47,828 bases of DNA from Saprospiraceae bacterium (GCA_043778415.1 JAYWGG010000356.1:1-47828); one strand, 5' to 3'; counted from the stretch's first letter, positions 559 to 14,441 are shown. The notes: generated by a model not told the origin, from the letters alone. Translations and numbers: made by a program.

Positions 559-3500
559 ATGTTCAATTTTCTAAAAAAAATATTCGGCACCAAACAAGAC
601 AAAGACGTAAAAGCCTACACGCCTACCGTCCATGAAATCACCGCTATCGGAGAGGATTTGAAGCAACTCAGCCACGATGACTTGCGCCAGATGACGTATG
701 AGTTTCGCCGCCGAATCGCCGAATTTCTCGAAAATATTGATGCCGACCTCCAAAATTTAGCCGAAAAAGTAGCCGAAGAGCAAGACATTCACCGCAAAGA
801 AGACTACTTCAAGGAAATCGATGAACTCAAAAAAGAACGCGACACCCAGCTCGAAGTGGTGCTGAAAGAGTTGCTGCCCACTGCCTTCGCCGTCGTGCGC
901 GAAACCAGTCGCCGTTTTCAACAAAACCCAAGCATCGCCGTCACCGCTACCGACCACGATAGGGCGATTGCTGCCAAAAAAGACTACGTCCGAATAGAGG
1001 GCGAGCAGGCGATTTGGCACAACCAATGGACGGCTGCGGGCGGACAAGTCAAATGGGACATGGTGCATTACGACGTGCAGATGATAGGCGGCATGGCACT
1101 CAACGAAGGAAAAATCGCAGAAATGGCTACGGGCGAGGGCAAAACGCTCGTTTCTACGCTGCCGTCTTACCTCAACGGACTTACAGGACAGGGCGTTCAC
1201 GTCATCACGGTCAACGACTATTTGGCGCGCCGTGACTCCGAGTGGAACGGTCCGCTTTTCGAGTTTTTATTTCTGACGGTGGACTGCATCGATAAGCACC
1301 GCCCGAACTCCGAAGAGCGTCGCCGCGCCTACGCCGCCGATATCACCTACGGAACGAACAACGAATTTGGATTTGATTATCTCCGCGACAACATGGTGAC
1401 ATCGCCCGAAGAACTCGTCCAGCGCAAACACCACTTTGCGATGGTAGATGAGGTGGATTCTGTCCTGATTGACGATGCGCGGACTCCGCTCATCATCTCG
1501 GGTCCGATAGTCGGCGACGCAGAAGACCGCGAATACCAAGAGTTCAAGCCTGCGGTAGAAAATTTGATGGCGGTGCAGCGCAAGTTGGCGACCGAATTTT
1601 TGGCACAAGCAAAAAAATTATTTCAAGACAATATTACTGGCAACAATGAAGGTGAGGGCGGAATGTTCTTGCTTCGTGCGCACCGCGCAATGCCCAAATA
1701 CCGCCCGTTGATAAAGTTTTTGAGTGAGGACGGCGTGAAAGTTGCCCTCCAAAAGACCGAAAATTTTTATATGCAAGAGCAATCCAAAAATATGCACAAA
1801 GTAGATGCTGGATTGTATTTTACGATTGACGAAAAAAACAGACAGGTCGAGCTGACCGAAAAAGGCGCAGAATATCTCGCAAAAGGCAGCGACGACAAGG
1901 AATTTTTTATACTTCCCAACGTTGCAGAGCGCATTATTGACATTGACCGCAGCCCAGCGACCGATTTGGAGAAAGAAGAAGCCAAAATCAAAGTAGCCCA
2001 AGAATTTTCGGTGAAGTCCAAACGCCTGCACGCAGTCAGCCAGTTGCTGAAAGCCTACACGCTTTTTGAGAAAGACGAGGAATATGTGGTCATAGAAGGC
2101 GAAGTAAAAATCGTAGATGAGCAAACTGGACGTATGATGGAGGGCAGACGCTACTCCGACGGCTTGCACCAAGCTATAGAAGCAAAAGAAAACGTAAAAA
2201 TCGGCGAAATAACCCAGACCTACGCCACAGTGACGCTACAAAATTACTTCCGAATGTACCACAAACTTTGTGGAATGACGGGAACTGCCGAAACAGAAGC
2301 GGGCGAATTTTGGGAAATCTACAAGCTCGACGTGGTGACTATCCCCACCAATCGCGACATGACTCGAATGGATATGGAGGATATGGTTTTCAAGACCAAT
2401 CGGGAGAAAACCAACGCCGTCATTGACGAAATCAATCGCCTCAGCGAAGCTGGTCGTCCCGTTTTGGTCGGCACGACTTCGGTAGATGTGTCCGAAAAGT
2501 TGAGCCGTATGCTCCAACTTCGTGGCGTAAAACACAATGTTTTGAACGCCAAACAGCATCAGCGCGAGGCGGAAATAGTCGCAGAGGCGGGCGTAGCAGG
2601 TCACGTCACGATAGCGACCAACATGGCGGGACGTGGGACGGACATCAAGCTCGGCGAAGGCGTAAAAGCATCTGGCGGCTTGGCGATAATCGGTACAGAA
2701 CGCCACGAAAGTCGGCGCGTAGATAGGCAGTTGCGCGGTAGAGCAGGGCGGCAAGGCGACCCTGGAACTTCCCAGTTTTTTGTTTCGCTCGAAGACCCGC
2801 TCATGCGACTGTTCAACTCGGACAGAATCGCAGGCTTGATGGACAGAATGGGACACAAGGACGGCGAGGTTATCCAACATTCGATGGTCACAAAATCCAT
2901 CGAGCGGGCGCAAAAGAAAGTAGAAGAAAACAACTTCGGCACTCGCAAACGCTTGTTGGAGTACGATGACGTGATGAATATTCAGCGCGAAGCCATTTAC
3001 AAAAAACGCAACAATGCACTGACGGGCGAGCGTTTGGTCGTAGATTTGGACGCAATGTTTCACTCGGTAGCCGAGAATTTGGTAGCCAATTTTCATCCCT
3101 CCAAAGACTACAACGGGTTCCGAATGGCATCGCTGACCAACTTTGGGATTGACCCCGAAATGGACGCGACCGCTTTCCAGCGCAGCCCCGAGGCGACCGT
3201 TATCCGCGAGTATCAGGACAAAGTTTTTTTGGTGTATGGACACAAATGCAGTAAAATTCGTGAGGTATTGTACCCAATCGCCAAGAATGTCTATGAAAGA
3301 GAAGGTCACATCTATCGCCGCTTGGCAATCCAATTCACGGACGGTGTCAGCCGAATGTTGCCCATCACGGCGGAGCTGGCGGACGCTTCCAAGACCGAAG
3401 GAAAATCCATCATCAGAGATATTGAAAAAACCGTAACCCTCGCCCTCATCGATGACCTCTGGAAAGAGCATCTTCGGGATATGGACGACCTCAAAGAGTC

Positions 3501-3876
3501 CGTCCAAGCCGCATCTTTCGAGCAAAAAGACCCTTTGGTCATCTACAAATTGGAGGCATATCGCTTGTTTGAAGATTTTATCCACCGCGTCAATTCGAGA
3601 GTAGTTTCGTACTTACTGAAAGGCAGCCTGCCGATGGAAAGCGAAGAAAATATTGCGCAGCAGCAACAAAATCTCGCCCGCCAACAGCAACGCCAGCAAC
3701 TGCGCGCACCAAAAATACAAACCAACCGACAAGCGGAATACGAAAATGCAGGCGGAGCGCAGCAACGCCTTTCGCAGCAACCCATGATGGCGCAGCAAGC
3801 GGAACAAAAAATCAGTCGGAACTCGCCCTGCCCGTGCGGAAGCGGAAAGAACTACAAAAACTGTCACGGAAAGTAG
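559..3876 (+). CDS. secA: Preprotein translocase ATPase SecA
   Basis: 1105 aa. Motifs MATGEGKTLV (Walker A), MVDEVDSVLIDDARTPLIISG, TNMAGRGTDIKLG, and the C-terminal zinc-binding tail CPCGSGKNYKNCHGK. Confidence 0.97.
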   Translation: MFNFLKKIFGTKQDKDVKAYTPTVHEITAIGEDLKQLSHDDLRQMTYEFRRRIAEFLENIDADLQNLAEKVAEEQDIHRKEDYFKEIDELKKERDTQLEVVLKELLPTAFAVVRETSRRFQQNPSIAVTATDHDRAIAAKKDYVRIEGEQAIWHNQWTAAGGQVKWDMVHYDVQMIGGMALNEGKIAEMATGEGKTLVSTLPSYLNGLTGQGVHVITVNDYLARRDSEWNGPLFEFLFLTVDCIDKHRPNSEERRRAYAADITYGTNNEFGFDYLRDNMVTSPEELVQRKHHFAMVDEVDSVLIDDARTPLIISGPIVGDAEDREYQEFKPAVENLMAVQRKLATEFLAQAKKLFQDNITGNNEGEGGMFLLRAHRAMPKYRPLIKFLSEDGVKVALQKTENFYMQEQSKNMHKVDAGLYFTIDEKNRQVELTEKGAEYLAKGSDDKEFFILPNVAERIIDIDRSPATDLEKEEAKIKVAQEFSVKSKRLHAVSQLLKAYTLFEKDEEYVVIEGEVKIVDEQTGRMMEGRRYSDGLHQAIEAKENVKIGEITQTYATVTLQNYFRMYHKLCGMTGTAETEAGEFWEIYKLDVVTIPTNRDMTRMDMEDMVFKTNREKTNAVIDEINRLSEAGRPVLVGTTSVDVSEKLSRMLQLRGVKHNVLNAKQHQREAEIVAEAGVAGHVTIATNMAGRGTDIKLGEGVKASGGLAIIGTERHESRRVDRQLRGRAGRQGDPGTSQFFVSLEDPLMRLFNSDRIAGLMDRMGHKDGEVIQHSMVTKSIERAQKKVEENNFGTRKRLLEYDDVMNIQREAIYKKRNNALTGERLVVDLDAMFHSVAENLVANFHPSKDYNGFRMASLTNFGIDPEMDATAFQRSPEATVIREYQDKVFLVYGHKCSKIREVLYPIAKNVYEREGHIYRRLAIQFTDGVSRMLPITAELADASKTEGKSIIRDIEKTVTLALIDDLWKEHLRDMDDLKESVQAASFEQKDPLVIYKLEAYRLFEDFIHRVNSRVVSYLLKGSLPMESEENIAQQQQNLARQQQRQQLRAPKIQTNRQAEYENAGGAQQRLSQQPMMAQQAEQKISRNSPCPCGSGKNYKNCHGK

Positions 3877-3931: not shown

Positions 3932-3959
3932 TTCGGTTTGTCTTTGTTGGTAACAGTAG

Positions 3960-4003
3960 AAAGACCGTCCGTTCCAGATTTGGAGCGGACGGTCTTTTTT
4001 ATT
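3960..4003 (+). terminator. Intrinsic terminator of secA
   Basis: Perfect 11-bp stem aagaccgtccg / cggacggtctt with a 14-nt loop, followed by a T-run. Confidence 0.8.
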
Positions 4004-4039
4004 TTCTAAAAAATACTTACTTTTACGAATAGTATTTAG

Positions 4040-4094
4040 GAACGCATCTGAAATAAATTACCCATTTTTTTTGTAAAATCACAATCAATCACTG
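4040..4094. repeat. Partial (5-prime part) copy of the intergenic repeat element
   Basis: gaacgcatctgaaataaattac ... acaatcaatcactg parallels the first ~55 bp of the 4101-4255 copy and lies directly adjacent to it. Confidence 0.6.
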
Positions 4095-4100
4095 TCTTAA

Positions 4101-4255
4101 GAACGCGTCTAAAATAAACTACTTATTTTTTCTGCTCAATTACAGCCAATCACTGCATTATTTTTCGTTACAACGCCCTGCGTTGCGCCTCAAAAATGCC
4201 TTGTTATTGATTGAATTGATTGGAAAAATTAAGTATCTTATTTTTTCTTCATTCC
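4101..4255. repeat. About 155-bp intergenic repeat element, copy 2 (between secA and hsdM)
   Basis: Roughly 90% identical by eye to 231-387, with the same internal inverted repeats. Confidence 0.8.
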
Positions 4256-4338: not shown

Positions 4339-7206
4339 ATGAAAGATAATAAAATCAAACTATCGCAATTAGAAAGTTTCCTGATGAAGGCAGCGGATAT
4401 TCTGCGTGGCAAAATGGATGCGTCAGAATATAAAGAGTTCATTTTTGGAATGTTGTTTCTGAAAAGAATGAGTGATGTGTTTGACCAAAAAAGGGAGCAG
4501 TTTAAAAAGAAGGATTATAAAGATTTAGATGGAGCAGTCTTGGCAGAAATCTTAGAAGATAAAATCACTTACGGTGAAACTTTTTTTGTTCCAAAAAGAG
4601 CAAGATGGAATGAAGAATTTACAGATGAAAATGGTGTGCAACAGCCGCCCATAAAACACTTGCAAAATAATATTGGGCAAATGCTGAATAAAGCTTTAGA
4701 TGCCATCGAAGAGGCAAACCCCGATACACTTTCAGGAATTTTTAAGGGCAGGATAAACTTTAATAAGGAAGTAGATGGAAAGGCTATTGTAAAAAATGCC
4801 GACCTAAAGAAAATGATAGACCATTTCAATGAGTTTCCCGATTTGATCAATGAAAATTTTGAGTTTCCTGATTTGTTGGGTGCAGCTTACGAGTATTTGC
4901 TAAAGCATTTTGCCGATGAAAGCGGTAAAAAAGGAGGGCAATTCTATACACCAAATCAAGTAGTGCGGCTTTTAGTGCAATTAATAAAGCCACAGGAAGG
5001 AATGAGTATTTATGACCCTACTGCTGGCAGTGGTGGTATGCTCATACAGTCACATCAGTATGTAGAAGAACAAGGACAAAATGCAAACAATCTTCAATTG
5101 TTTGGTCAGGAGAATGACCCTACGGTAGTTGCCATTTGTAAAATGAACATTATTTTGCACAACATTACCAAATATACTATTGAGTATGGCGATACATTAG
5201 ATGAACCATTAAACGAAAAAAACGGACAGCTTATTCAGTTTGATAGAGTAATTGCCAATCCTCCATTTTCTCAAAACTATGGTTTGGCTACAATGAAACA
5301 CAAGGAACGTTTCCCTTATGGCTTTGCTCCCGAAGATGGCAAGAAAGCCGATTTAATGTTTGTGCAGCACATGTTGGCAAGCTGCGATAAAAAGGGCAAG
5401 GTTGTAGTCGTAATGCCTCACGGGGTATTGTTTAGAGGAGGTAAAGAAAAAGACATTAGGGAAGGTATGTTAAAAGCCGATGTAATTGAAGGTGTGATTA
5501 GTTTGCCTCCTCAATTATTTTATGGCACTGGTATTCCTGCTTGTATTATTGTACTGAATAAAAACAAGCCCGATGAATTAAAGAATAAAGTGTTTTTTAT
5601 TAATGCTGATAAAGACTTTGCCGAAGGCAAAAAACAAAATACCCTACGACCAGAAGACATTGAAAAAATAGACTACGTTTTTACCAATAAAATAGAAGAA
5701 GCCAAGTATGCCAAGTTGGTTGATATAGCCAACATTGAAGCAAATGATTACACACTAAACATCAGGCGTTATGTAGATAATACCCCAGAGCCTGAACCCG
5801 AAAATGTAAAAGCTCATTTGGTGGGTGGTATTCCTGTGGCAGAAATAAAAGCCGTACAAACTACCCAATGCCTCAAATTCAAATACAACGGCAACCAACT
5901 TTTTAAGGATAAAAACGAAGCCTTTAAAGAATTTGCCATTACTGAAAAAGCAGCCATCAAAGCCAATATTGATGATGATAAAAACGTAAAGGAAACATTA
6001 TTGCATTTAGGCTTAAACCTTGCCGACTGGTGGCAAATTGCCAAAGAAGATTTTTCAAAATTAGCACCAGTAATAGAACCGGTGCAAGCTAATACAGCAA
6101 GCGAGGGGATAGTGAATTATATCTCATTAGGTGGCGATAAAATACCCAAAGTGCGTAAGGAGTTGTTAGATACCATTAAAGAAAAATTTGTACCCATTGG
6201 CGTATTAGATAAGTTTCAGGTAGCAGGTGTGTTTGTAAACTGGTGGGATAATATCAAGTACGACCTCAAAACTATTATGCAAAATGGCTGGGATTCTGGT
6301 CTGATTCCCGATGATTATTTGATAGCCGAGTTTTTCCAAAAAGAAATGACAGAAATTGAGACAACGGAAATAGCACAATCCGAAAAAGAAACAATATTTG
6401 ATGAAGCCATTGAAGAAGCAATAAATCTTTTAGAATTAATACCAAAAGAAGAAGAAACTACCATACCAACAGCTAAAGTAAAAACTGATTTAGCTAAAGA
6501 AATTAAAAGATTATTAGATGAAAAAAAGAAGCCCGAAAAAGCTAAACCCTATCAGGAAGTCGAAAAGAAAATATTAGATACGGAAACAGCAATTAAAGAA
6601 CTAAAGGCTACACTAAAAGCCAAACAAGCCGAACTGGAGCTAAAACTGATTCTAAAACGCTATGGTACAGATGATGAAAAAGCCGAAAGCAAAAAACTAT
6701 TGCTAACAGCTAATACTGAAATAGACAAACTGAAAGACGCCGTAGAAGAAATAAACGAGGAGTTTGATCTGGAAATGACGGCTTTTTCTATCCAACAAAC
6801 CCAAAAAACACTGAAAGCATTAGATAAATCTGTAAAATCAAAAACAACAGCTAAATCAGTGACTCAGACCATTGCAGACGTAACTGCAATAGCCAAGACT
6901 TATAATGCCCTGATTAAAGACAAAACCATTATCCAAACCAAACTAAACAAAATTGATGCCTTGTTTGCAGATATTGGCGGCATTATTACCACCGAACAAA
7001 CCCAAATGTTGATACTCAAAAAGCATTTTGATATTATAAACAACCAACTGCAACGCTACTTAAATGCCGAAAAAAGAACGTTAATAAGTGCCTACGAAAA
7101 CTTGTTTGATAAATACTTTACTTCTGCACAGAGCATAGAACAAAGCCGAAATAAAACGATGAATGAACTCAATGATTTTTTAACCCAATTAAAATATTTG
7201 AATTAA
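4339..7206 (+). CDS. hsdM: Type I restriction-modification methyltransferase subunit HsdM with a ~470-aa C-terminal extension
   Basis: N-terminal HsdM-type region (LESFLMKAADILRG, FGMLFLKRMSD). AdoMet motif DPTAGSGGML and catalytic motif IANPPFS. 955 aa against about 500 for typical HsdM. The distal part is K/E-rich and looks like coiled coil. Confidence 0.92.
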   Translation: MKDNKIKLSQLESFLMKAADILRGKMDASEYKEFIFGMLFLKRMSDVFDQKREQFKKKDYKDLDGAVLAEILEDKITYGETFFVPKRARWNEEFTDENGVQQPPIKHLQNNIGQMLNKALDAIEEANPDTLSGIFKGRINFNKEVDGKAIVKNADLKKMIDHFNEFPDLINENFEFPDLLGAAYEYLLKHFADESGKKGGQFYTPNQVVRLLVQLIKPQEGMSIYDPTAGSGGMLIQSHQYVEEQGQNANNLQLFGQENDPTVVAICKMNIILHNITKYTIEYGDTLDEPLNEKNGQLIQFDRVIANPPFSQNYGLATMKHKERFPYGFAPEDGKKADLMFVQHMLASCDKKGKVVVVMPHGVLFRGGKEKDIREGMLKADVIEGVISLPPQLFYGTGIPACIIVLNKNKPDELKNKVFFINADKDFAEGKKQNTLRPEDIEKIDYVFTNKIEEAKYAKLVDIANIEANDYTLNIRRYVDNTPEPEPENVKAHLVGGIPVAEIKAVQTTQCLKFKYNGNQLFKDKNEAFKEFAITEKAAIKANIDDDKNVKETLLHLGLNLADWWQIAKEDFSKLAPVIEPVQANTASEGIVNYISLGGDKIPKVRKELLDTIKEKFVPIGVLDKFQVAGVFVNWWDNIKYDLKTIMQNGWDSGLIPDDYLIAEFFQKEMTEIETTEIAQSEKETIFDEAIEEAINLLELIPKEEETTIPTAKVKTDLAKEIKRLLDEKKKPEKAKPYQEVEKKILDTETAIKELKATLKAKQAELELKLILKRYGTDDEKAESKKLLLTANTEIDKLKDAVEEINEEFDLEMTAFSIQQTQKTLKALDKSVKSKTTAKSVTQTIADVTAIAKTYNALIKDKTIIQTKLNKIDALFADIGGIITTEQTQMLILKKHFDIINNQLQRYLNAEKRTLISAYENLFDKYFTSAQSIEQSRNKTMNELNDFLTQLKYLN

Positions 7207-8198
7207 TGGAGATTAGAGAAAGTATATACCAAAATGTAAAAGAAGTGTTGTTGCAAGCTCGTAATAACACCTATTCATATATAAATGCACAAATGATTTT
7301 TGCTTATTGGCAAATAGGCAAAATTATTGTTGAGGAGGAACAAAAAGGTGAAAAAAGAGCAGAATATGGCAATTTTTTATTGAAAGAATTAGCACAAAAA
7401 TTAACGCTCGATTTTGGAAAAGGATTTGATGAAAGAGAACTAAGGCGAATTCGCCAATTTTATAATTGCTTTCCAATTCGGGACGCACTGCGTCCCGAAT
7501 TGACTTGGACGCACTACCGATTGATAATAAGGATAGAAGACGAAACGGCAAGGCAATATTATATAACAGAAAGCATTACCCAACACTGGAGTACCCGAAA
7601 ATTAGACCGAAATATTAGTACTCAATATTTTCAACGAATTATAGCCAATAAAACAAAGCAATTAACCAATAGCAAAGAGGTAAATAATACAAATAGCTAT
7701 TTTATTAAAGACCCTTATGTGTTGGAGTTTTTAAACTTATCCAGTAGCATAACACATAAAGAAAAAGACATTGAGAATGCCATCATAAAGCATTTAAAAC
7801 AGTTTTTATTAGAATTAGGTAAAGGATTTGCTTTTGTGGCACAGCAAAAATTAATTAGAACCGAAACTTCCGATTTCTATATTGACTTGGTGTTTTACAA
7901 CTATCTACTTAAATGTTTTGTAGTTATAGATATTAAAAACGCTAAACTTACCCACCAAGATGTAGGGCAGCTGGATATGTATGTACGGATGTATGACGAC
8001 CTCGAAAAAACCGATACTGACAACCCCACCATAGGCATTTTGCTTTGTGCCGATACCGATAATGTAGTAGCCAAATACTCGGTACTGAACGACAATAACA
8101 ACCTTTTTGCAAGCAAATATCAATTGTATTTGCCTACCGAAAAACAACTGCAAGAATGGCTTAAAAATGAACCTTTAAATATTGACAATAATGGTTAA
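7206..8198 (+). CDS. YhcG/DUF1016-family PD-(D/E)xK nuclease-like protein, paralog A
   Basis: 330 aa. N-terminal YWQIGKIIVEEEQKGEKRAEYG block. C-terminal FYIDLVFYNYLLKCFVVIDIKNAKLTHQDVGQLDMYV, giving D...DxK. The start shares one nt with the hsdM stop (TAATG). Confidence 0.8.
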   Translation: MEIRESIYQNVKEVLLQARNNTYSYINAQMIFAYWQIGKIIVEEEQKGEKRAEYGNFLLKELAQKLTLDFGKGFDERELRRIRQFYNCFPIRDALRPELTWTHYRLIIRIEDETARQYYITESITQHWSTRKLDRNISTQYFQRIIANKTKQLTNSKEVNNTNSYFIKDPYVLEFLNLSSSITHKEKDIENAIIKHLKQFLLELGKGFAFVAQQKLIRTETSDFYIDLVFYNYLLKCFVVIDIKNAKLTHQDVGQLDMYVRMYDDLEKTDTDNPTIGILLCADTDNVVAKYSVLNDNNNLFASKYQLYLPTEKQLQEWLKNEPLNIDNNG

Positions 8199-8205
8199 TG
8201 ATAAA

Positions 8206-8251
8206 AAACTCAACGATTTTTTAACCCAATTAAATTATTTAGGATAATGGA
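8206..8251 (+). repeat. Duplicate of the hsdM 3-prime end and stop/start junction
   Basis: 39 of 46 positions are identical to 7165-7210 in my own character-by-character alignment. It encodes a relic KLNDFLTQLNYLG* against the hsdM tail ELNDFLTQLKYLN*. Both copies end in TAATGGA. Confidence 0.85.
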
Positions 8252-9479
8252 AGAAAATCAAATACAAATTCCTGAGGGGTGGGAAGGTAAAGAGTTAGGG
8301 ACTTTGTACTTAGAAAAAAGAAAGTCTAAGTTTAAAGTATCTGATGCTACTAATTACGGAGGCATACCATTTTACACAAGTGGTGATGCTGTTTTGGAGC
8401 ATAACGAAATACAGACGGATGGCGAAAATATTTTTTTGGCTACTGGTGGTATTGCTAATGTAAAGTTTTATATAGGTAATGTTGCCTACTCAACAGATAC
8501 CTATGTAATTGTAGGCAAAGAAAATATTAGTACCCAATTTTTATATTTCAAACTCCTTGACCAGTTGTATTACATCAATACAAATTATTTTCAAGGAAGT
8601 GGTTTAAAGCATTTGCAAAAAAAGGACTTTAAAAAGCATTTTTTTACTTTACCAAAATCCACCACCGAGCAAACCACCATAGCCAACATACTTTCTAAAT
8701 GCGATGAAGCCATAGCCAACACCCAAGCCTTAATAGCCAAATACAGCCGTATAAAAACAGGCTTAATGCAAGACTTGCTTACCAAAGGCATTGATGAAAA
8801 CGGGAATATTAGAAGCGAACAAACCCACGAATTTAAAGATAGCCCGCTTGGGAGGATTCCAGTGGAGTGGGAAGTTAAAAAAATGGGAGATTTAATTTTA
8901 GCTATTGACCCTCAACCCGACCACAGAACGCCACCTGCCTTTATTGATGGTGTGCCTTATGTTGGAATTAGTGACTTTATAAGTAATGGAGAAATTGATA
9001 TAAAGAATTGTAGAAAAGTAGGGTTTAATGTTTTAGAAAAACAAAGAAATTCATTTACAATCGAGTTAGGCGATTTGATATTTGGTAAAATAGGTACAAT
9101 CGGTAAGCCCAAAATATTGCCTGATTTTAATAAGCGGCATTTCACTCTAAGTGCAAACGTTATTCTTATTAAGCCAATTGAATGTCCTGATTTTATTTAT
9201 TGGACTTTAGTTTCTGACTATATAAGTAATCAAGTAAGCCTTGCCATTCATTCTACTTCACAACCTGCATTTGGTATGGAGAAAATTAGAGATTTGAATG
9301 TACTAGCACCAAAACCAAAAGAAAGGGAAAGAATAACTGAAAAGTTGAAAAAGATAGAGGAATTATTTTCAGCAGAGCATATACAACTCGCCAAACTTCA
9401 ATCCCTCAAAACTGGTTTGATGCAAGATTTATTGAGTGGGAGGGTGCGGGTAAGTACATTAATAAAAGAAACGGAATGA
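8247..9479 (+). CDS. hsdS: Type I restriction-modification specificity subunit HsdS
   Basis: 410 aa. Two target-recognition halves are separated and followed by the conserved helices KTGLMQDLLTKG (central) and KTGLMQDLLSGRVRV (C-terminal). Confidence 0.92.
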   Translation: MEENQIQIPEGWEGKELGTLYLEKRKSKFKVSDATNYGGIPFYTSGDAVLEHNEIQTDGENIFLATGGIANVKFYIGNVAYSTDTYVIVGKENISTQFLYFKLLDQLYYINTNYFQGSGLKHLQKKDFKKHFFTLPKSTTEQTTIANILSKCDEAIANTQALIAKYSRIKTGLMQDLLTKGIDENGNIRSEQTHEFKDSPLGRIPVEWEVKKMGDLILAIDPQPDHRTPPAFIDGVPYVGISDFISNGEIDIKNCRKVGFNVLEKQRNSFTIELGDLIFGKIGTIGKPKILPDFNKRHFTLSANVILIKPIECPDFIYWTLVSDYISNQVSLAIHSTSQPAFGMEKIRDLNVLAPKPKERERITEKLKKIEELFSAEHIQLAKLQSLKTGLMQDLLSGRVRVSTLIKETE

Positions 9480-10492
9480 TGCAAATAAAAAAAGACCTTA
9501 TACAGCAAATACAAGCCATCATAGCCAATGCACAAGCAAAGGCTATCCGTGCCGTAGATACGGAAAGGGTATTGATGTACTGGCAAATTGGCAAAGTAAT
9601 ATTTGAAGAGGAGCAGCAAGGGAAAAACCGTGCCGATTATGGTTCTTTTTTAATAAAATCCTTAGCAGAAAGCTTGCAACCACAGTTTGGCAGTGGCTTT
9701 TCTTACCGTCAATTAAACTGGTATAGACAGTTTTATAAAGGGTTTCCAATTGTGTCCGCACTGCGGACACAATTCAGTTGGTCACACTACAAAACATTGT
9801 TAAGTATCGACAGTCAAGATAAAAAAGACTTTTACATAGCCGAGACAGAGAAAAACAACTGGACAGCAAGGCAACTGGAACGCCAAGTAAATAGCCAATT
9901 ATTTGAACGCTTATTATTGAGCAATGATGTGCAAAGTGTGTTGGCAGTAGCCCGTGAAGAAAAACTACCTACGGATGCTAAAGAAATTATTAAAGACCCA
10001 ATGGTATTGGAATTTTTGGGCTTACGCAGAGAAACAGCGTACTACGAAAAAGATTTAGAAACCGCCATCATTACCCATTTACAGGATTTTATTTTAGAAT
10101 TGGGCAATGGTTTTTCGTTTGTAGCGAGGCAAAAACGCATATATATTGAAGGCGATGAATTTTTTATAGACTTGGTTTTTTATAATCGCTTGTTGCAATG
10201 CTTTGTAATTATTGAAATAAAAACCACCAAATTAACCCATCAAAACATTGGGCAATTGCAGATGTATGTAAATTATTACGATAGGTTTGAAAAACAAGAT
10301 TTTGAAAACAATGCTATTGGCATTTTGCTTTGCACCGATAAAAACGATGCAGTAGTTAAAATTACATTACCTGAAAACAATAAAAATATTATAGCCAGTA
10401 AATACCAACTCTATTTACCTACTGAGCAGCAATTGATAGATGAAGTAAAAAAGGAAATCGAAAAATTAGACAATAGCAAAACTAACCAATGA
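9476..10492 (+). CDS. YhcG/DUF1016-family PD-(D/E)xK nuclease-like protein, paralog B
   Basis: 338 aa. YWQIGKVIFEEEQQGKNRADYG block. C-terminal FFIDLVFYNRLLQCFVIIEIKTTKLTHQNIGQLQMYV, giving D...ExK. ATGA overlaps with both the hsdS stop and the hsdR start. Confidence 0.8.
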   Translation: MMQIKKDLIQQIQAIIANAQAKAIRAVDTERVLMYWQIGKVIFEEEQQGKNRADYGSFLIKSLAESLQPQFGSGFSYRQLNWYRQFYKGFPIVSALRTQFSWSHYKTLLSIDSQDKKDFYIAETEKNNWTARQLERQVNSQLFERLLLSNDVQSVLAVAREEKLPTDAKEIIKDPMVLEFLGLRRETAYYEKDLETAIITHLQDFILELGNGFSFVARQKRIYIEGDEFFIDLVFYNRLLQCFVIIEIKTTKLTHQNIGQLQMYVNYYDRFEKQDFENNAIGILLCTDKNDAVVKITLPENNKNIIASKYQLYLPTEQQLIDEVKKEIEKLDNSKTNQ

Positions 10493-13400
10493 TAAAGAGC
10501 AACGATAAAACCACGGGTAATTTAGGTTCATCGCTTAAATTAGATGAAAAAAGCCACGTTGAACAACCGTTCATTGAGCAGTTAAAAGGTTTAGGCTGGA
10601 ACAAAGGCAGCAATCAAGTGTTGGAACTGCCCATGCAACAAACACCCGACCAGAGTTTTCGTACTTCGTTTGCAGAAGTGGTTTTGCAGCCCAAACTTCG
10701 CCAGTCATTAATGACAATCAATCCATTTTTAACAGATGTGCAAGTGGACGAAGTGGTTAGGAAGATGACTACTTTCCAGAAAATCAGCCTGATAGAAAAC
10801 AACCAGCAAGTGCTAACTTATCTGTTAGAAGGCACAAGAGTGGCTACCAATGAGCAAACAGGGGAACTCAGCCCGACGGTGCGGTTCATTGATTTTGAAA
10901 ACATTGAGAACAATATTTTTACAGCTATTTCGCAATTCAAAGTAAGAGTAACCGGCACAGACCACCACATAATACCCGACCTTGTATTATTTGTCAATGG
11001 TTTGCCTGTTGTAGTAATAGAAGCCAAATCATCAAAAGTAAAAGAATCCATTGCCGAAGCCATAGACCAGCTTATGCGGTATAGTGAACAACGAGGCGAC
11101 ACAGGCGAAGGCAACAAAGAATTATTTTTTTACAATCAGTTTATCATTGCTACCTGCCGTACCGAAGCCAAGTTTGGCACCATAACCACAGGTATAGAAA
11201 AACACTTTTATCGTTGGACAGACCCCTATCCTCGGTCATTGAATGATTTGGAACACGGTGCATCTAGCCCAAACGACCAGCAACGTATGGTTGCAGGTAT
11301 GTTGGATTTAAGAAACCTATTAGACATAATTCAGGTATTTACCGTTTTTCAAATAGACGATAAAGGCAAAAAAATAAAAGTAGTAGGCAGATACCAACAG
11401 TTTAGAGCAGTAAAAATAACAGCTAAAAGGCTAATAGAGGGTAGAAATCCACTGGAGCGTGGCGGTATTATTTGGCACACACAAGGTTCGGGCAAGTCGC
11501 TTACAATGATGTTTTTGGTAAGAGAAATGCGGCTAAAGCCAGCTTTGCAGTCTTGGAAAATAGTTTTTGTAACCGATAGAACACAATTAGAAGAACAGCT
11601 ATCCGAAACTGGGCACAGCATCGGTTTTACCATCAAAAACGCAAACTACATCAACTCTAAAGCCAAGCCAGACGGTAAGAGTTTGAAAGAATTATTGAGC
11701 AATGATAACTCGGATATGGTAATGGCGATGATTCATAAGTTTCAAGAAAATGGAGAGTTGGAAGGCTCGCCGCAATTTCCCGAATTAAATGCCAATAGCA
11801 ATATTTTAGTAATGACCGATGAAGCCCATCGTGCTCAATATTCAATACTTGCAGCTAATTTAGACAAAGCTTTACCCAATGCCACATCAATAGGTTTTAC
11901 GGGTACACCCACAAGCAAAACCGAAAAAAAATATAAAGATTACATTGATAAATACACCATGCGGCAGGCAATAGATGATGGCGTTACTTTAGAAATAGTA
12001 TATGAAGGCTTTACTCACAATGCCGAAATTCCTGATAAAGCTGGAATGGATAAAAAGTTTGAAGATGTATTTAGCGATTATCAACTAACAGAACGCTTAC
12101 AGATATTAGGCTTTGGTACTCGTGATGCTTATTTAGAAGCCATTGAAACCATTAGAGATAAGGCAAAAAATATGGTAACACACTATGTAGAGCAAATATT
12201 TACAGGTGGTTTTAAGGCTCAAATAGTTGCCAATAGCCGTGAAGCAGCAGTAAGGTATAAAGTGGCTATTGAGGAAGCATTAAAGCAAAAAATTGCTGAA
12301 TTGGAAATTAGCAAATCCATAATGGATGTAAAAATAGATGTGCTAAAAAAACTTGAGGTTGCAGTAGTTATTTCAGGCAGTCATAACGATGCTTTGCATA
12401 TAAAGGCATTTACCAATGGTGATTATCACAAAAAGAGTATTAAGCGTTTCAAACTTCCATTTGGCAAAACAGATGAAGAAGATACAGCCCTTAATGGCAA
12501 TGTAGGTATCATCATAGTAAACAATATGTTGCTTACTGGCTTTGATGCACCTATTGAGCAAGTAATGTATTTAGATAGAGTAATAAAAGAACACAATTTA
12601 TTACAAGCTATTGCAAGGGTAAACAGAATTGGCTCTGAAGGCAAAAACAAAGGATTTATTGTTGATTATGTAGGTGTAGGGCATCATTTAAAACGAGCTT
12701 TAGATACTTATGCCAAAAAAGAAATACAAGACATTTTAGGATGTATTAGTAACGATGAAGCAGAACTAAATGAACTTATAAAAGCACACAAGGACATTTG
12801 GGAATTTCTTGAAAAGAACGGCTTAACAGATTTTTCGGATGCTGATTTGTTCAATGATATTTTTTATGATGAAGACATACGATTTGAATATATCAAGTTG
12901 TTTAAAAAATTCACTTCTTGTTTTAATGATGTTTTACCAAAAAAAGAAGCCTTAAAATTTTTTACTGACTGGAAAAGTTTTATTGAAATAAATGAATTAG
13001 CACACAGACACTTTAGAGATGGTCGTTTCAGTATGAAGGATATTCCACCAAAATTGAGAGGCATCGCAGATGAATTTTTGAAGAGTAAAGGCTTAGAACA
13101 AACCGTTGCACCAATTTCAATTATGGCAGATAACTTTCAACAAGGGGTAAACGCAAAGAAAAGAGAAAAAACAAAAGCAGCCGAAGTAGAACACGCCATT
13201 AGGCATTACATTGATATTAATTTAGATGAAGACCCCGCATTGTTTGCTTCGTTTGCCAAGACCTTGGAGGAGATTTTAGAAAACTTCAAAGGCAACTGGA
13301 AAGCAATCTATGAAGAGTTAGAAAAACTAAGGGAGAAAATTAAGAACAGAGAAAAGGAAGAAACCTACGGTTTAGACCGCAAAAAACAAATGCCTTTCTT

Positions 13401-13686
13401 CAATTCATTTAAAGATTACCTATTTGAAAATAGAAAATTAACCGATGAAGAAATTGCCCAAAACGTAAACCTAACTCAGCATATTTTCAATTTAGTTTCC
13501 ACCGAAATAAAATTGACAGGCTTTTGGGATAGTACTCCGGCACAGTCTAAACTCAAAGCAGAATTGCAAAAGATGCTGTTATCGACAGAGTTCAATAAAT
13601 TACCGAACATTGTGCTGAAAAGAAGCGAGTTGATTTCAAGAATAATGGAGTTGGCGGAAACCAATCATTTTAAAATTATTGCATAA
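10489..13686 (+). CDS. hsdR: Type I restriction endonuclease subunit HsdR
   Basis: 1065 aa. N-terminal PD-(D/E)xK (IIPDLVLFVNGLPVVVIEAKS). Helicase motif I TQGSGKSLTM, motif II MTDEAHRAQ, and QAIARVNR. Confidence 0.95.
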   Translation: MIKSNDKTTGNLGSSLKLDEKSHVEQPFIEQLKGLGWNKGSNQVLELPMQQTPDQSFRTSFAEVVLQPKLRQSLMTINPFLTDVQVDEVVRKMTTFQKISLIENNQQVLTYLLEGTRVATNEQTGELSPTVRFIDFENIENNIFTAISQFKVRVTGTDHHIIPDLVLFVNGLPVVVIEAKSSKVKESIAEAIDQLMRYSEQRGDTGEGNKELFFYNQFIIATCRTEAKFGTITTGIEKHFYRWTDPYPRSLNDLEHGASSPNDQQRMVAGMLDLRNLLDIIQVFTVFQIDDKGKKIKVVGRYQQFRAVKITAKRLIEGRNPLERGGIIWHTQGSGKSLTMMFLVREMRLKPALQSWKIVFVTDRTQLEEQLSETGHSIGFTIKNANYINSKAKPDGKSLKELLSNDNSDMVMAMIHKFQENGELEGSPQFPELNANSNILVMTDEAHRAQYSILAANLDKALPNATSIGFTGTPTSKTEKKYKDYIDKYTMRQAIDDGVTLEIVYEGFTHNAEIPDKAGMDKKFEDVFSDYQLTERLQILGFGTRDAYLEAIETIRDKAKNMVTHYVEQIFTGGFKAQIVANSREAAVRYKVAIEEALKQKIAELEISKSIMDVKIDVLKKLEVAVVISGSHNDALHIKAFTNGDYHKKSIKRFKLPFGKTDEEDTALNGNVGIIIVNNMLLTGFDAPIEQVMYLDRVIKEHNLLQAIARVNRIGSEGKNKGFIVDYVGVGHHLKRALDTYAKKEIQDILGCISNDEAELNELIKAHKDIWEFLEKNGLTDFSDADLFNDIFYDEDIRFEYIKLFKKFTSCFNDVLPKKEALKFFTDWKSFIEINELAHRHFRDGRFSMKDIPPKLRGIADEFLKSKGLEQTVAPISIMADNFQQGVNAKKREKTKAAEVEHAIRHYIDINLDEDPALFASFAKTLEEILENFKGNWKAIYEELEKLREKIKNREKEETYGLDRKKQMPFFNSFKDYLFENRKLTDEEIAQNVNLTQHIFNLVSTEIKLTGFWDSTPAQSKLKAELQKMLLSTEFNKLPNIVLKRSELISRIMELAETNHFKIIA

Positions 13687-13706: not shown

Positions 13707-14441
13707 GTGATGGAAGAGAAAAAAACATATAATAGTGATAAATTTGCTCAATTAGTCATTAACAATTTACCATTAATAACTATTAAATATAGTAAAATAC
13801 GTAAAACGGTAAATATTACCGTTGAAAGAGATAGGCGTATTGTAGTCACTGCCCCCGAAGAAACGTCTTTAGAAAAAATAGAAGAAATAATACAATCAAA
13901 AAAACAATGGTTGAAAGAAAAAATAAACCATGCCCAGAAGTATCCAGTTGAAGTTCAGCAAAAAGAATTTGTATCTGGTGAAGCCATTATGTATTTAGGA
14001 ACAAATTACCAACTAGAAGTAGTAAACGAAGCTATTGAGGGAATTGAGTTTGAGCAAAGATTCAGAATTTCTAAAGCCAATCAACCCAATGCAAATGCTT
14101 TATTTAAACATTGGTACTTACATCAAGCATTAAAGTTAATTGAACCATTGGCTGCCAATTTTGCAAAGAATTTAGGTGTAATATATAATGAGTTCAAAAC
14201 CTCCGAAATGAAATATCGTTGGGGTTCTTGCACTCCTGCCAATAATATCATTTTCAATTGGCGAATTATCAAAGCACCGATGTATGTTTTGGAGTATTTA
14301 GTAGCCCACGAATTAGTACATTTAATGGAGAACAATCACACACCGAGATTTTGGAATATACTATCCATACAAGTACCTAATTATTTGAAAGCAAAAAAAT
14401 GGCTCAAAGAAAATGGACATTTGTTGGAGGTAGACTTTTAA
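13707..14441 (+). CDS. DUF45/YgjP-like (M48-related) zinc metallopeptidase-fold protein
   Basis: 244 aa with HExxH in LVAHELVHLMENNHTPRFW near the C-terminus. Sits 20 nt downstream of hsdR on the same strand. Confidence 0.75.
   Translation: MMEEKKTYNSDKFAQLVINNLPLITIKYSKIRKTVNITVERDRRIVVTAPEETSLEKIEEIIQSKKQWLKEKINHAQKYPVEVQQKEFVSGEAIMYLGTNYQLEVVNEAIEGIEFEQRFRISKANQPNANALFKHWYLHQALKLIEPLAANFAKNLGVIYNEFKTSEMKYRWGSCTPANNIIFNWRIIKAPMYVLEYLVAHELVHLMENNHTPRFWNILSIQVPNYLKAKKWLKENGHLLEVDF

Follow-up and report, generated by a model that had tools for sequence, protein, structure and literature searches.

The hsd operon and the duplicated hsdM end

The 47,828-nucleotide (nt) stretch of Saprospiraceae bacterium DNA analysed here (GCA_043778415.1 JAYWGG010000356.1:1-47828), referred to throughout as the window, contains a Type I restriction-modification (R-M) operon in which the hsdM 3' end occurs twice, once on either side of DUF1016-A, a gene of the DUF1016 family embedded between hsdM and hsdS. 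The methylase subunit gene hsdM (4339-7206, + strand) encodes 955 amino acids (aa) and matches the Pfam families HsdM_N and N6_Mtase (PF12161, 2e-29; PF02384, 8e-107). The embedded cargo gene DUF1016-A (7206-8198, + strand) encodes a YhcG-type PD-(D/E)XK nuclease (Pfam DUF1016_N and YhcG_C; PADLOC PDC-S02, E = 5e-132) and is followed by the specificity subunit gene hsdS (8247-9479, + strand; Pfam Methylase_S, with PF01420 matching in two stretches). The first copy of the repeat (7165-7210, + strand) is the genuine hsdM 3' end, encoding the HsdM C-terminus (ELNDFLTQLKYLN, then the stop), together with a TAATG overlap in which the hsdM TAA (7204-7206) shares a nucleotide with the DUF1016-A ATG (7206-7208). 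The second copy (8206-8251, + strand) is a relic of the same end, reading KLNDFLTQLNYLG and a stop, with a regenerated TAATG junction in which the TAA (8245-8247) overlaps the hsdS ATG (8247-8249). This second copy lies inside an 18-codon mini-open reading frame (mini-ORF; 8191-8247, + strand; MVNDKKLNDFLTQLNYLG, then the stop), whose ATG sits over the last DUF1016-A codons (the DUF1016-A stop is at 8196-8198) and whose TAA sits over the hsdS ATG.

The hsdM 3' end is truly duplicated in the window. A preliminary description of this DNA had aligned 7165-7210 with 8206-8251 and counted 39 of 46 identities; both segments are as quoted there and the count is reproduced without gaps, the longest exact run being 20 nt. 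A separate repeat finding gives the same pair as a 45-nt direct repeat of 87% identity with a 1041-nt spacing, and a DNA profile of the hsdM tail matches copy 1 at 7156-7200 (44.5 bits) and copy 2 at 8207-8240 (27.7 bits, E = 4e-6). The next-best 46-mer match in the window reaches 27/46 on the + strand and 28/46 on the - strand, and the best match in 200 first-order Markov simulations of the window averages 26.6 with a maximum of 29/46, so the low GC content (42%) is not the cause of the similarity, a check that the same description had proposed. Five contigs from separate assemblies or samples show an identical arrangement (L058-L062; related loci are given L numbers here), so the repeat is not an assembly artefact. 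Copy 1 had been described as the real hsdM end joined to the DUF1016-A start, and the reading frames agree. Copy 2 had been described as a non-coding relic joined to the hsdS start; the junction stands, but the relic may not be simply non-coding, with ATG-initiated mini-ORFs in eight of the nine relics described below. Allowing a 9-nt gap may widen the similarity to 7150-7210 (AATAAAAC) against 8200-8251, an extension that is weak from the window alone.

Downstream of hsdS lies a second embedded cargo gene, DUF1016-B (9476-10492, + strand; PADLOC PDC-S02, E = 4e-139), which is 46% identical to DUF1016-A and joins both hsdS and hsdR through ATGA overlaps without any flanking duplication. The restriction subunit gene hsdR (10489-13686, + strand) matches PF04313 (HSDR_N), PF18766 (SWI2_SNF2) and PF22679 (T1R_D3-like), and is followed by a ygjP-like metallopeptidase gene (13707-14441, + strand; Pfam YgjP-like), the conserved last gene of this operon family. 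The window therefore contains the parts of a Type I R-M system (the HsdM domains, two Methylase_S target recognition domains (TRDs) in HsdS, and an SF2 helicase with HSDR_N in HsdR) and an embedded arrangement, with a PADLOC model match and the order hsdM-DUF1016-A-hsdS-DUF1016-B-hsdR, all on the + strand. Upstream, secA (559-3876) is followed by the sole strong terminator-like hairpin (3958-3999), and the window scan found no + strand terminator-like site inside the operon. Two tandem 61-nt units (75% identical; 4036-4157) lie between this hairpin and hsdM, in the presumed operon promoter region. Matches to sigma-70-type promoters occur in the window at chance level, and their consensus is not relevant to Bacteroidota. 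An Rfam scan of the window gave no family at the junction and only one tRNA elsewhere.

Empty sites and tail copies in related loci

Homologues of this HsdM comprise thousands (more than 8000) of ~960-aa proteins, mostly from Bacteroidota, with an almost invariant C-terminus (...TM.ELNDFLTQL[NK]YL[NS]). Ordinary HsdM proteins are about half the size of this type; residues ~485-955 of the window protein form a C-terminal extension of ~470 aa beyond N6_Mtase that has no Pfam domain, and the length of this extension is conserved (total ~945-985 aa) in nearly all of the best 120 homologues. A scan of species-representative genomes gave 57 loci with the conserved order hsdM, hsdS, variable cargo, hsdR and ygjP-like gene, the last following hsdR in nearly all related loci. 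Direct adjacency of hsdM and hsdS is seen in 52 of the 55 genome loci that can be read, mostly through a 1-nt T[AG]ATG overlap. A single conserved DNA block spans the last ~45 nt of hsdM together with the first ~36 nt of hsdS (ATGGAAGAAAATCAA...; MEENQxxIPxGW); the hsdS 5' end of the window (ATGGAAGAAAATCAAATACAAATTCC; MEENQIQIPEGW) belongs to it in both the junction table and the alignment, and the variable TRD1 comes next. Synonymous identity is modestly raised in the last 10 hsdM codons compared with those upstream.

The nearest HsdM (P0002; 91% aa and 87% nt identity) is encoded in L063, where hsdM runs directly into an hsdS that shares its TRD1 allele with the window (88% aa, residues 1-150) but not its TRD2. 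By this comparison L063 is as good an empty site as can be expected, and the candidate empty sites that the preliminary description proposed to look for are found in most of the family, L063 being the closest. While hsdR is 98-99% identical among L168, L063 and L002, the hsdM genes of L063 and L002 are only 87% identical, and the window hsdR is 90% identical to the hsdR of all three. Judged by these identities, the operons are mosaic, with modules swapped between loci.

Further tail copies were sought by peptide search and then with a DNA profile of the hsdM tail. They occur only where cargo separates hsdM from hsdS, and the tail profile found no second copy in canonical loci, where the two genes adjoin. 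Nine locus types have hsdM/hsdS cargo, and a tail copy before the next gene is clear in seven of them and left as a decayed trace in an eighth. In the window the order is hsdM, DUF1016-A, relic, hsdS. In L163 a DUF1016-A orthologue (81%) lies between perfect 59-nt repeats (AATAAAACAATGGCTGAGCTAAATAATTTTCTAACCCAATTAAAATATTTGAATTAAGA); L156-161 have an orthologue (80%), a remnant of another DUF1016 gene and a relic within a called 39-codon ORF that ends on the hsdS ATG. The order in L162 is hsdM, AbiD remnant, relic, DUF1016-A orthologue (82%), relic, hsdS, and in L150-155 and L168 it is B-type DUF1016, relic, DUF1016-A orthologue (83%), relic, hsdS. The search for other DUF1016 genes flanked by duplicated hsdM tails was therefore successful in L163, L156, L162 and L150/L168 (orthologues 80-83% identical). 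A broken B-type DUF1016 in L002 runs in frame into a relic that precedes hsdS. Cargo matching PADLOC AbiD occupies the same position in three locus types: L066/68/69 have AbiD, a relic (KPMAELNDFLTQLNYLK, then the stop) and hsdS; L047 has a decayed trace only, judged by eye; and L010 has no relic, the AbiD stop directly overlapping the hsdS ATG. The kinds of cargo with a tail copy are thus two DUF1016 subtypes and AbiD. Because the relic also follows AbiD (L066/68/69) and an AbiD remnant (L162), the duplication is not specific to DUF1016, and the DUF1016-specific part of the preliminary description fails by the refuting condition set there. Two 'gene + tail copy' units are stacked in one orientation in L162 and again in L150/L168.

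The duplicated unit consists of the last 11-20 hsdM codons with the stop/start junction. In the profile alignment, the hsdM coding sequence left in the relics amounts to ~32 to ~67 nt, not counting the last codon and stop, and its stop-proximal part is always retained. All nine relics have an open frame whose stop lies on the next ATG (6/9, with the native 1-nt overlap) or 1-5 nt upstream of it, and in eight of them an in-frame ATG lies at or over the stop of the upstream gene. The closest match to the real tail is 59/59 (L163); at the other extreme a short core with small in-frame deletions is left. A common left boundary of all relics at hsdM codon -17, plausible by eye, is tentative; the profile alignment backs it in L163, L156 and L066 only, and the remaining relics are detectable only from codons -14 to -11. 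Both window copies carry the rare variant TTT TTA (TTT CTA in most loci), and both L163 copies carry the rare variant AAT AAT (N-N), which points to duplication in situ or gene conversion at these loci. The window relic encodes LNYL, the family majority, and the resident hsdM tail encodes LKYL.

The tail copies are restricted to one junction. Cargo is far commoner between hsdS and hsdR than between hsdM and hsdS, and yet a duplication of the hsdS tail before hsdR was found in none of the 29 loci with cargo there (Fisher's test, 8/9 versus 0/29, p = 2e-7, the nine locus types not being phylogenetically independent). The operon family has its main cargo site in the hsdS/hsdR gap; cargo there or just after ygjP includes TIR/SEFIR, Piwi (prokaryotic Argonaute), PDDEXK_3, RhuM, Fic and large helicase-nuclease proteins, with varied-cargo sites at L063 4223-5422 and 9347-10992, L163 9404-10826 and L010 13332-18300.

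Orthologues of the DUF1016-A clade also occur elsewhere (in L164 and L169 after a PLD/SNF2 helicase gene, in L170 inside a Type III R-M system, and in L167 alone), and their presence in unrelated contexts shows the gene to be mobile cargo. No flanking repeats were found around DUF1016 in L164, L167, L169 and L170 or around DUF1016-B, and no tail relics beside more distant DUF1016 relatives (49-71% identical) in 80 metagenome loci; most of these distant genes lie outside hsd loci. The distribution of DUF1016-A among close hsdM relatives is patchy, and identities of DUF1016-A and hsdM compared among loci show no decisive incongruence; from this comparison, a single ancient insertion with losses and repeated transfers would look alike. 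The proposal that DUF1016 genes move as modules that plug into coupled hsd junctions is therefore borne out in part: the gene is mobile and recurs at this junction, but there is no general signature, as DUF1016-B, the 29 hsdS/hsdR loci and the other systems have no such duplication.

Several further features of these cargo genes were observed. Many DUF1016 genes contain a perfect or near-perfect palindrome in the DUF1016_N coding region at ORF nt ~265-300 (window 7474-7502 in DUF1016-A, CAATTCGGGACGCACTGCGTCCCGAATTG; window 9748-9774 in DUF1016-B, AATTGTGTCCGCACTGCGGACACAATT; also L073-L102 and others). Its arms differ among homologues while the symmetry is retained, which amounts to compensatory changes, and its centre is usually CA[CT]TG. 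Perfect arms of at least 11 nt are present in 30 of 86 DUF1016 ORFs, and the 86 shuffled controls never exceed 9; the palindrome may serve as an operator, as a site for the nuclease itself or as an RNA hairpin. Cassette remnants between hsdM and hsdS include a fragment of this palindrome region (L156 6997-7050), the 62-codon AbiD remnant of L162 (3587-3775) and the broken B-type DUF1016 of L002, which is chimeric (9960-10565). The AbiD cassette adds ~220 nt of non-coding DNA (L066 10891-11113; L010 10943-11158) with TAACTTTG or TACCTTTG, which fit the Bacteroidota -7 promoter motif TAnnTTTG, and the AbiD cargo may carry its own promoter. The left end of this cassette (ATGAAAATCAA) resembles a truncated hsdS start. 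The L168 contig (1-17552, an extension of L150) contains two relics, hsdS, hsdR and ygjP, and has no hsdM within 10 kb upstream, where there are instead a helix-turn-helix gene, a PLD/SNF2 helicase gene, an MmeI-like methyltransferase gene and four consecutive DUF1016 paralogues. Its gene order suggests that two restriction systems were fused here or that one replaced part of the other; the relics are orphans.

Proposed coupling and recombination, and alternative explanations

The comparison of loci shows a duplication that recurs with three types of cargo, is restricted to the hsdM/hsdS junction, keeps its stop/ATG geometry and forms stacked arrays. The explanation towards which we lean, with confidence a little above even, has two parts: the tail copy may restore the native context for coupled translation downstream of the cargo, and the repeats may permit gain and loss of cargo by recombination. 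Each gene at the hsdM/hsdS overlap would act as a cassette composed of an ORF and an hsdM-tail copy, and insertion at the overlap would be tolerated mainly if a copy of the native sequence context were kept ahead of hsdS. The upstream copy would remain the HsdM C-terminus and pass ribosomes to the cargo ATG through the native TAATG overlap. The downstream copy would rebuild a 40-60 nt AU-rich, unstructured leader before hsdS or the next cassette, usually with a short ORF running from the cargo stop codon to the start codon of the next gene, and hsdS would remain translationally coupled in spite of a 1-kb insertion. As direct repeats, the copies would also offer homology for RecA-type recombination, with scarless loss (an L063-like junction), stacking (L162, L168) and cassette exchange among mosaic loci as possible outcomes. 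If the repeats are such recombination substrates, the empty sites, the stacks, the remnants (L156, L162, L002) and the patchy distribution of DUF1016-A could all be explained.

Initiation in Bacteroidota proceeds without Shine-Dalgarno pairing and depends on upstream sequence and low secondary structure (PMC6847099). The junction RNAs of the window are unstructured (folding z = +0.2 and +0.4), and the geometry for termination and reinitiation is present in the mini-ORF that ends in TAATG at hsdS, which would be compatible with coupling. An RNA stem between the tail (TGATTTTCT) and hsdS codons 2-5 (AGAAAATCA), and partly the DUF1016-A 5' end, appears in many single-sequence folds and was rejected as a candidate element. 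Over 68 aligned junctions, 80.7% of cells pair, with covariation no better than in shuffles (180/500); RNAalifold gave no consensus pair for the 68 junction copies, and shuffled sequences fold as well as the window copies do. The complementarity of the stem is attributable to conserved coding sequence on both sides.

The most serious rival is that the relic is a neutral scar. Illegitimate recombination, or homologous recombination with overlapping arms, could have duplicated the hsdM end, leaving a functionless segment that decays and is sometimes refreshed by gene conversion; selection might have filtered such events only at the moment of insertion. We regard this as possible, at clearly less than even probability in either form, and much of what weighs against the coupling and recombination explanation is what a scar would show. 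The relics form a graded series of decay from 59/59 identity (L163) to a 32-nt core, L010 has none, L047 has nearly lost its own, and the first relic of L150/L168 is the only one without an in-frame ATG. There is no RNA structure or covariation that would mark a cis element at the junctions, the loci are visibly mosaic, and the identity of the window relic to the real tail (85%) equals the divergence between the window and L063 loci (85-87% nt).

Other points also count against a maintained coupling element or active recombination. The ATGA overlaps joining hsdS, DUF1016-B and hsdR manage without any duplication; the synonymous-site excess in the hsdM tail is small and purely descriptive; and the L168 relics persist with no hsdM within 10 kb upstream. 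A joint skipping 7207-8247 was not seen in the four public biofilm-metagenome runs that contain the sequence, for which only assembled contigs, which drop rare variants, were searched. The DUF1016-A loci may also stem from few events, in which case the nine locus types are not independent. What speaks for the coupling and recombination explanation over a neutral scar is that such a by-product would be expected at hsdS/hsdR too, where flanks are conserved and cargo is more frequent, yet it is absent from all 29 loci; that the frame and the native stop/ATG geometry are kept in 9/9 relics; and that the core nearest the ATG survives in every one. If the relic proves to be only a scar, it would still be a clean record of how the locus was assembled, of modest interest.

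A bolder form of the coupling and recombination explanation would make the hsdM 3' end both the docking module of a cassette system independent of recombinases and a portable adaptor for translational coupling, with homologous recombination inserting, stacking, swapping and scarlessly excising the units. We consider this form rather unlikely. If true, it would represent integron-like logic built from coding sequence, and would account for the embedding of defence genes in Type I R-M operons that are left undisrupted.

It is also conceivable, but improbable, that the tail copy came by hitch-hiking, when a new hsdS (TRD1) from a canonical locus recombined into an hsdM-DUF1016-hsdS locus and carried along the hsdM tail of the donor. 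The exchange of hsd modules between loci, the family-majority LNYL of the window relic against the resident LKYL, and the near identity of the relic and the first 36 nt of hsdS (MEENQIQIPEGW) between the window and L002, in spite of different TRD1 alleles, would fit such an event. It does not suit the first relics of L162 and L168, which precede DUF1016 genes rather than hsdS, nor the relic of L163, which is identical to the resident tail at 59/59 positions including the rare AAT AAT. The rare TTT TTA shared by both window copies argues in the same direction, as does L063, which has the same TRD1 and a resident-type LKYLN tail.

Still less probable is a site-specific cassette system, in which the tail copies would be attC/attI-like or dif-like sites for a dedicated recombinase. 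The integron-like array of promoterless ORFs in one orientation, each followed by a ~60-nt repeat and all beside a fixed site, would recommend it, as would the perfect 59-nt repeat of L163. Against this, no integrase, transposase or recombinase gene was found in the operon, in the 12 kb downstream or among the called upstream genes; the repeat is neither conserved in secondary structure nor palindromic; the length and left boundary of the relics vary; and the repeat is ordinary conserved hsdM coding sequence. Chance similarity in AT-rich DNA or an assembly artefact has a negligible probability, given the margin over the simulated maximum, the five independent contigs and relics in at least six other locus types.

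Comparison with known systems

Target-site duplications made by transposons resemble the present case in that direct repeats flank an insert and relatives have the empty site. Here the duplicated length is large and variable (~32-67 nt) and the insert is one ORF trimmed at the start and stop codons; the window repeat listing shows no inverted repeat on either side of it, and Pfam finds no transposase domain in the insert (7206-8205), only the DUF1016 ORF. A transposon-type target-site duplication is therefore unlikely, and the preliminary view of the repeat as the footprint of a cassette inserted into an ancestral hsdM-hsdS junction holds with respect to the empty sites and the further flanked genes, the duplication being probably not of the transposition type.

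Integron cassettes bear a resemblance, and only that, in their stacked promoterless ORFs with a ~40-70-nt repeat, single orientation, fixed site and varied cargo. They differ in that the present loci have no IntI-type integrase nearby and in that the repeat is the coding sequence of a neighbouring gene rather than a structured palindrome. The genes flanking the operon in the window are secA, a beta-lactamase-fold gene, ygjP, MbnP-like genes, an exonuclease gene and a sigma factor gene, and no recombinase gene lies beside the array in the window flanks (12 kb downstream and called upstream genes) or in related loci. Cassette exchange, if it occurs, probably proceeds by general homologous recombination.

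Gene pairs coupled through stop-start overlaps include trpB-trpA and the hsdM-hsdS pair of EcoKI, which shares 1 nt and for which coupling is reported (PMC3510504). In the present family, hsdM and hsdS have a 1-nt TAATG/TGATG overlap in most loci, and six of the nine relics have it too. Unlike in EcoKI, coupling in loci of the window type would pass through a vestigial mini-ORF copied from the end of the upstream gene. To our knowledge, such a mini-ORF relay has no demonstrated case in any hsd locus.

The embedding of defence genes is known from Type I R-M, BREX and DISARM systems (bioRxiv 10.1101/2024.01.29.577857; PMC11411939), and DUF1016 genes between hsd genes were noted earlier (PMC9881135). 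PDC-S02 (DUF1016) is among the 'guilt-by-embedding' candidates of Payne et al. 2024, with candidate status only, and according to the same authors the significance of embedding remains to be explored (bioRxiv 10.1101/2024.01.29.577857). Embedding in R-M, BREX and DISARM operons is now used to discover immune systems, and it raises the question of how a gene enters a tightly coupled operon without breaking it. The present locus family provides a sequence-level signature at this point, as the gene inserted at a coupled junction brings with it a copy of the end of the upstream gene. It suggests the testable ideas that translational coupling limits insertion into operons in Bacteroidota, which lack Shine-Dalgarno initiation, and that short coding repeats let defence cargo be gained, stacked and lost. 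The tail copy also makes a practical marker, as a search for orphan hsdM tails should reveal embedded or decayed cassettes (such as the L156 and L162 remnants and the L168 relics).

The literature search, incomplete in its coverage, yielded no description of a duplicated hsdM tail flanking an embedded gene. PrrC (EcoprrI), TgvAB (Vibrio cholerae VPI-2) and the Campylobacter rlo genes resemble the cargo described here in being co-oriented accessory genes between core hsd genes; the 'ORF + hsdM-tail copy' unit distinguishes the present family, and in it the hsdM/hsdS junction only. Embedding and hsdM-hsdS coupling are thus already known and, as far as that search reaches, the recurrent 'ORF + hsdM-tail copy' anatomy and its restriction to a coupled junction appear to be what these loci add to the systems described before.

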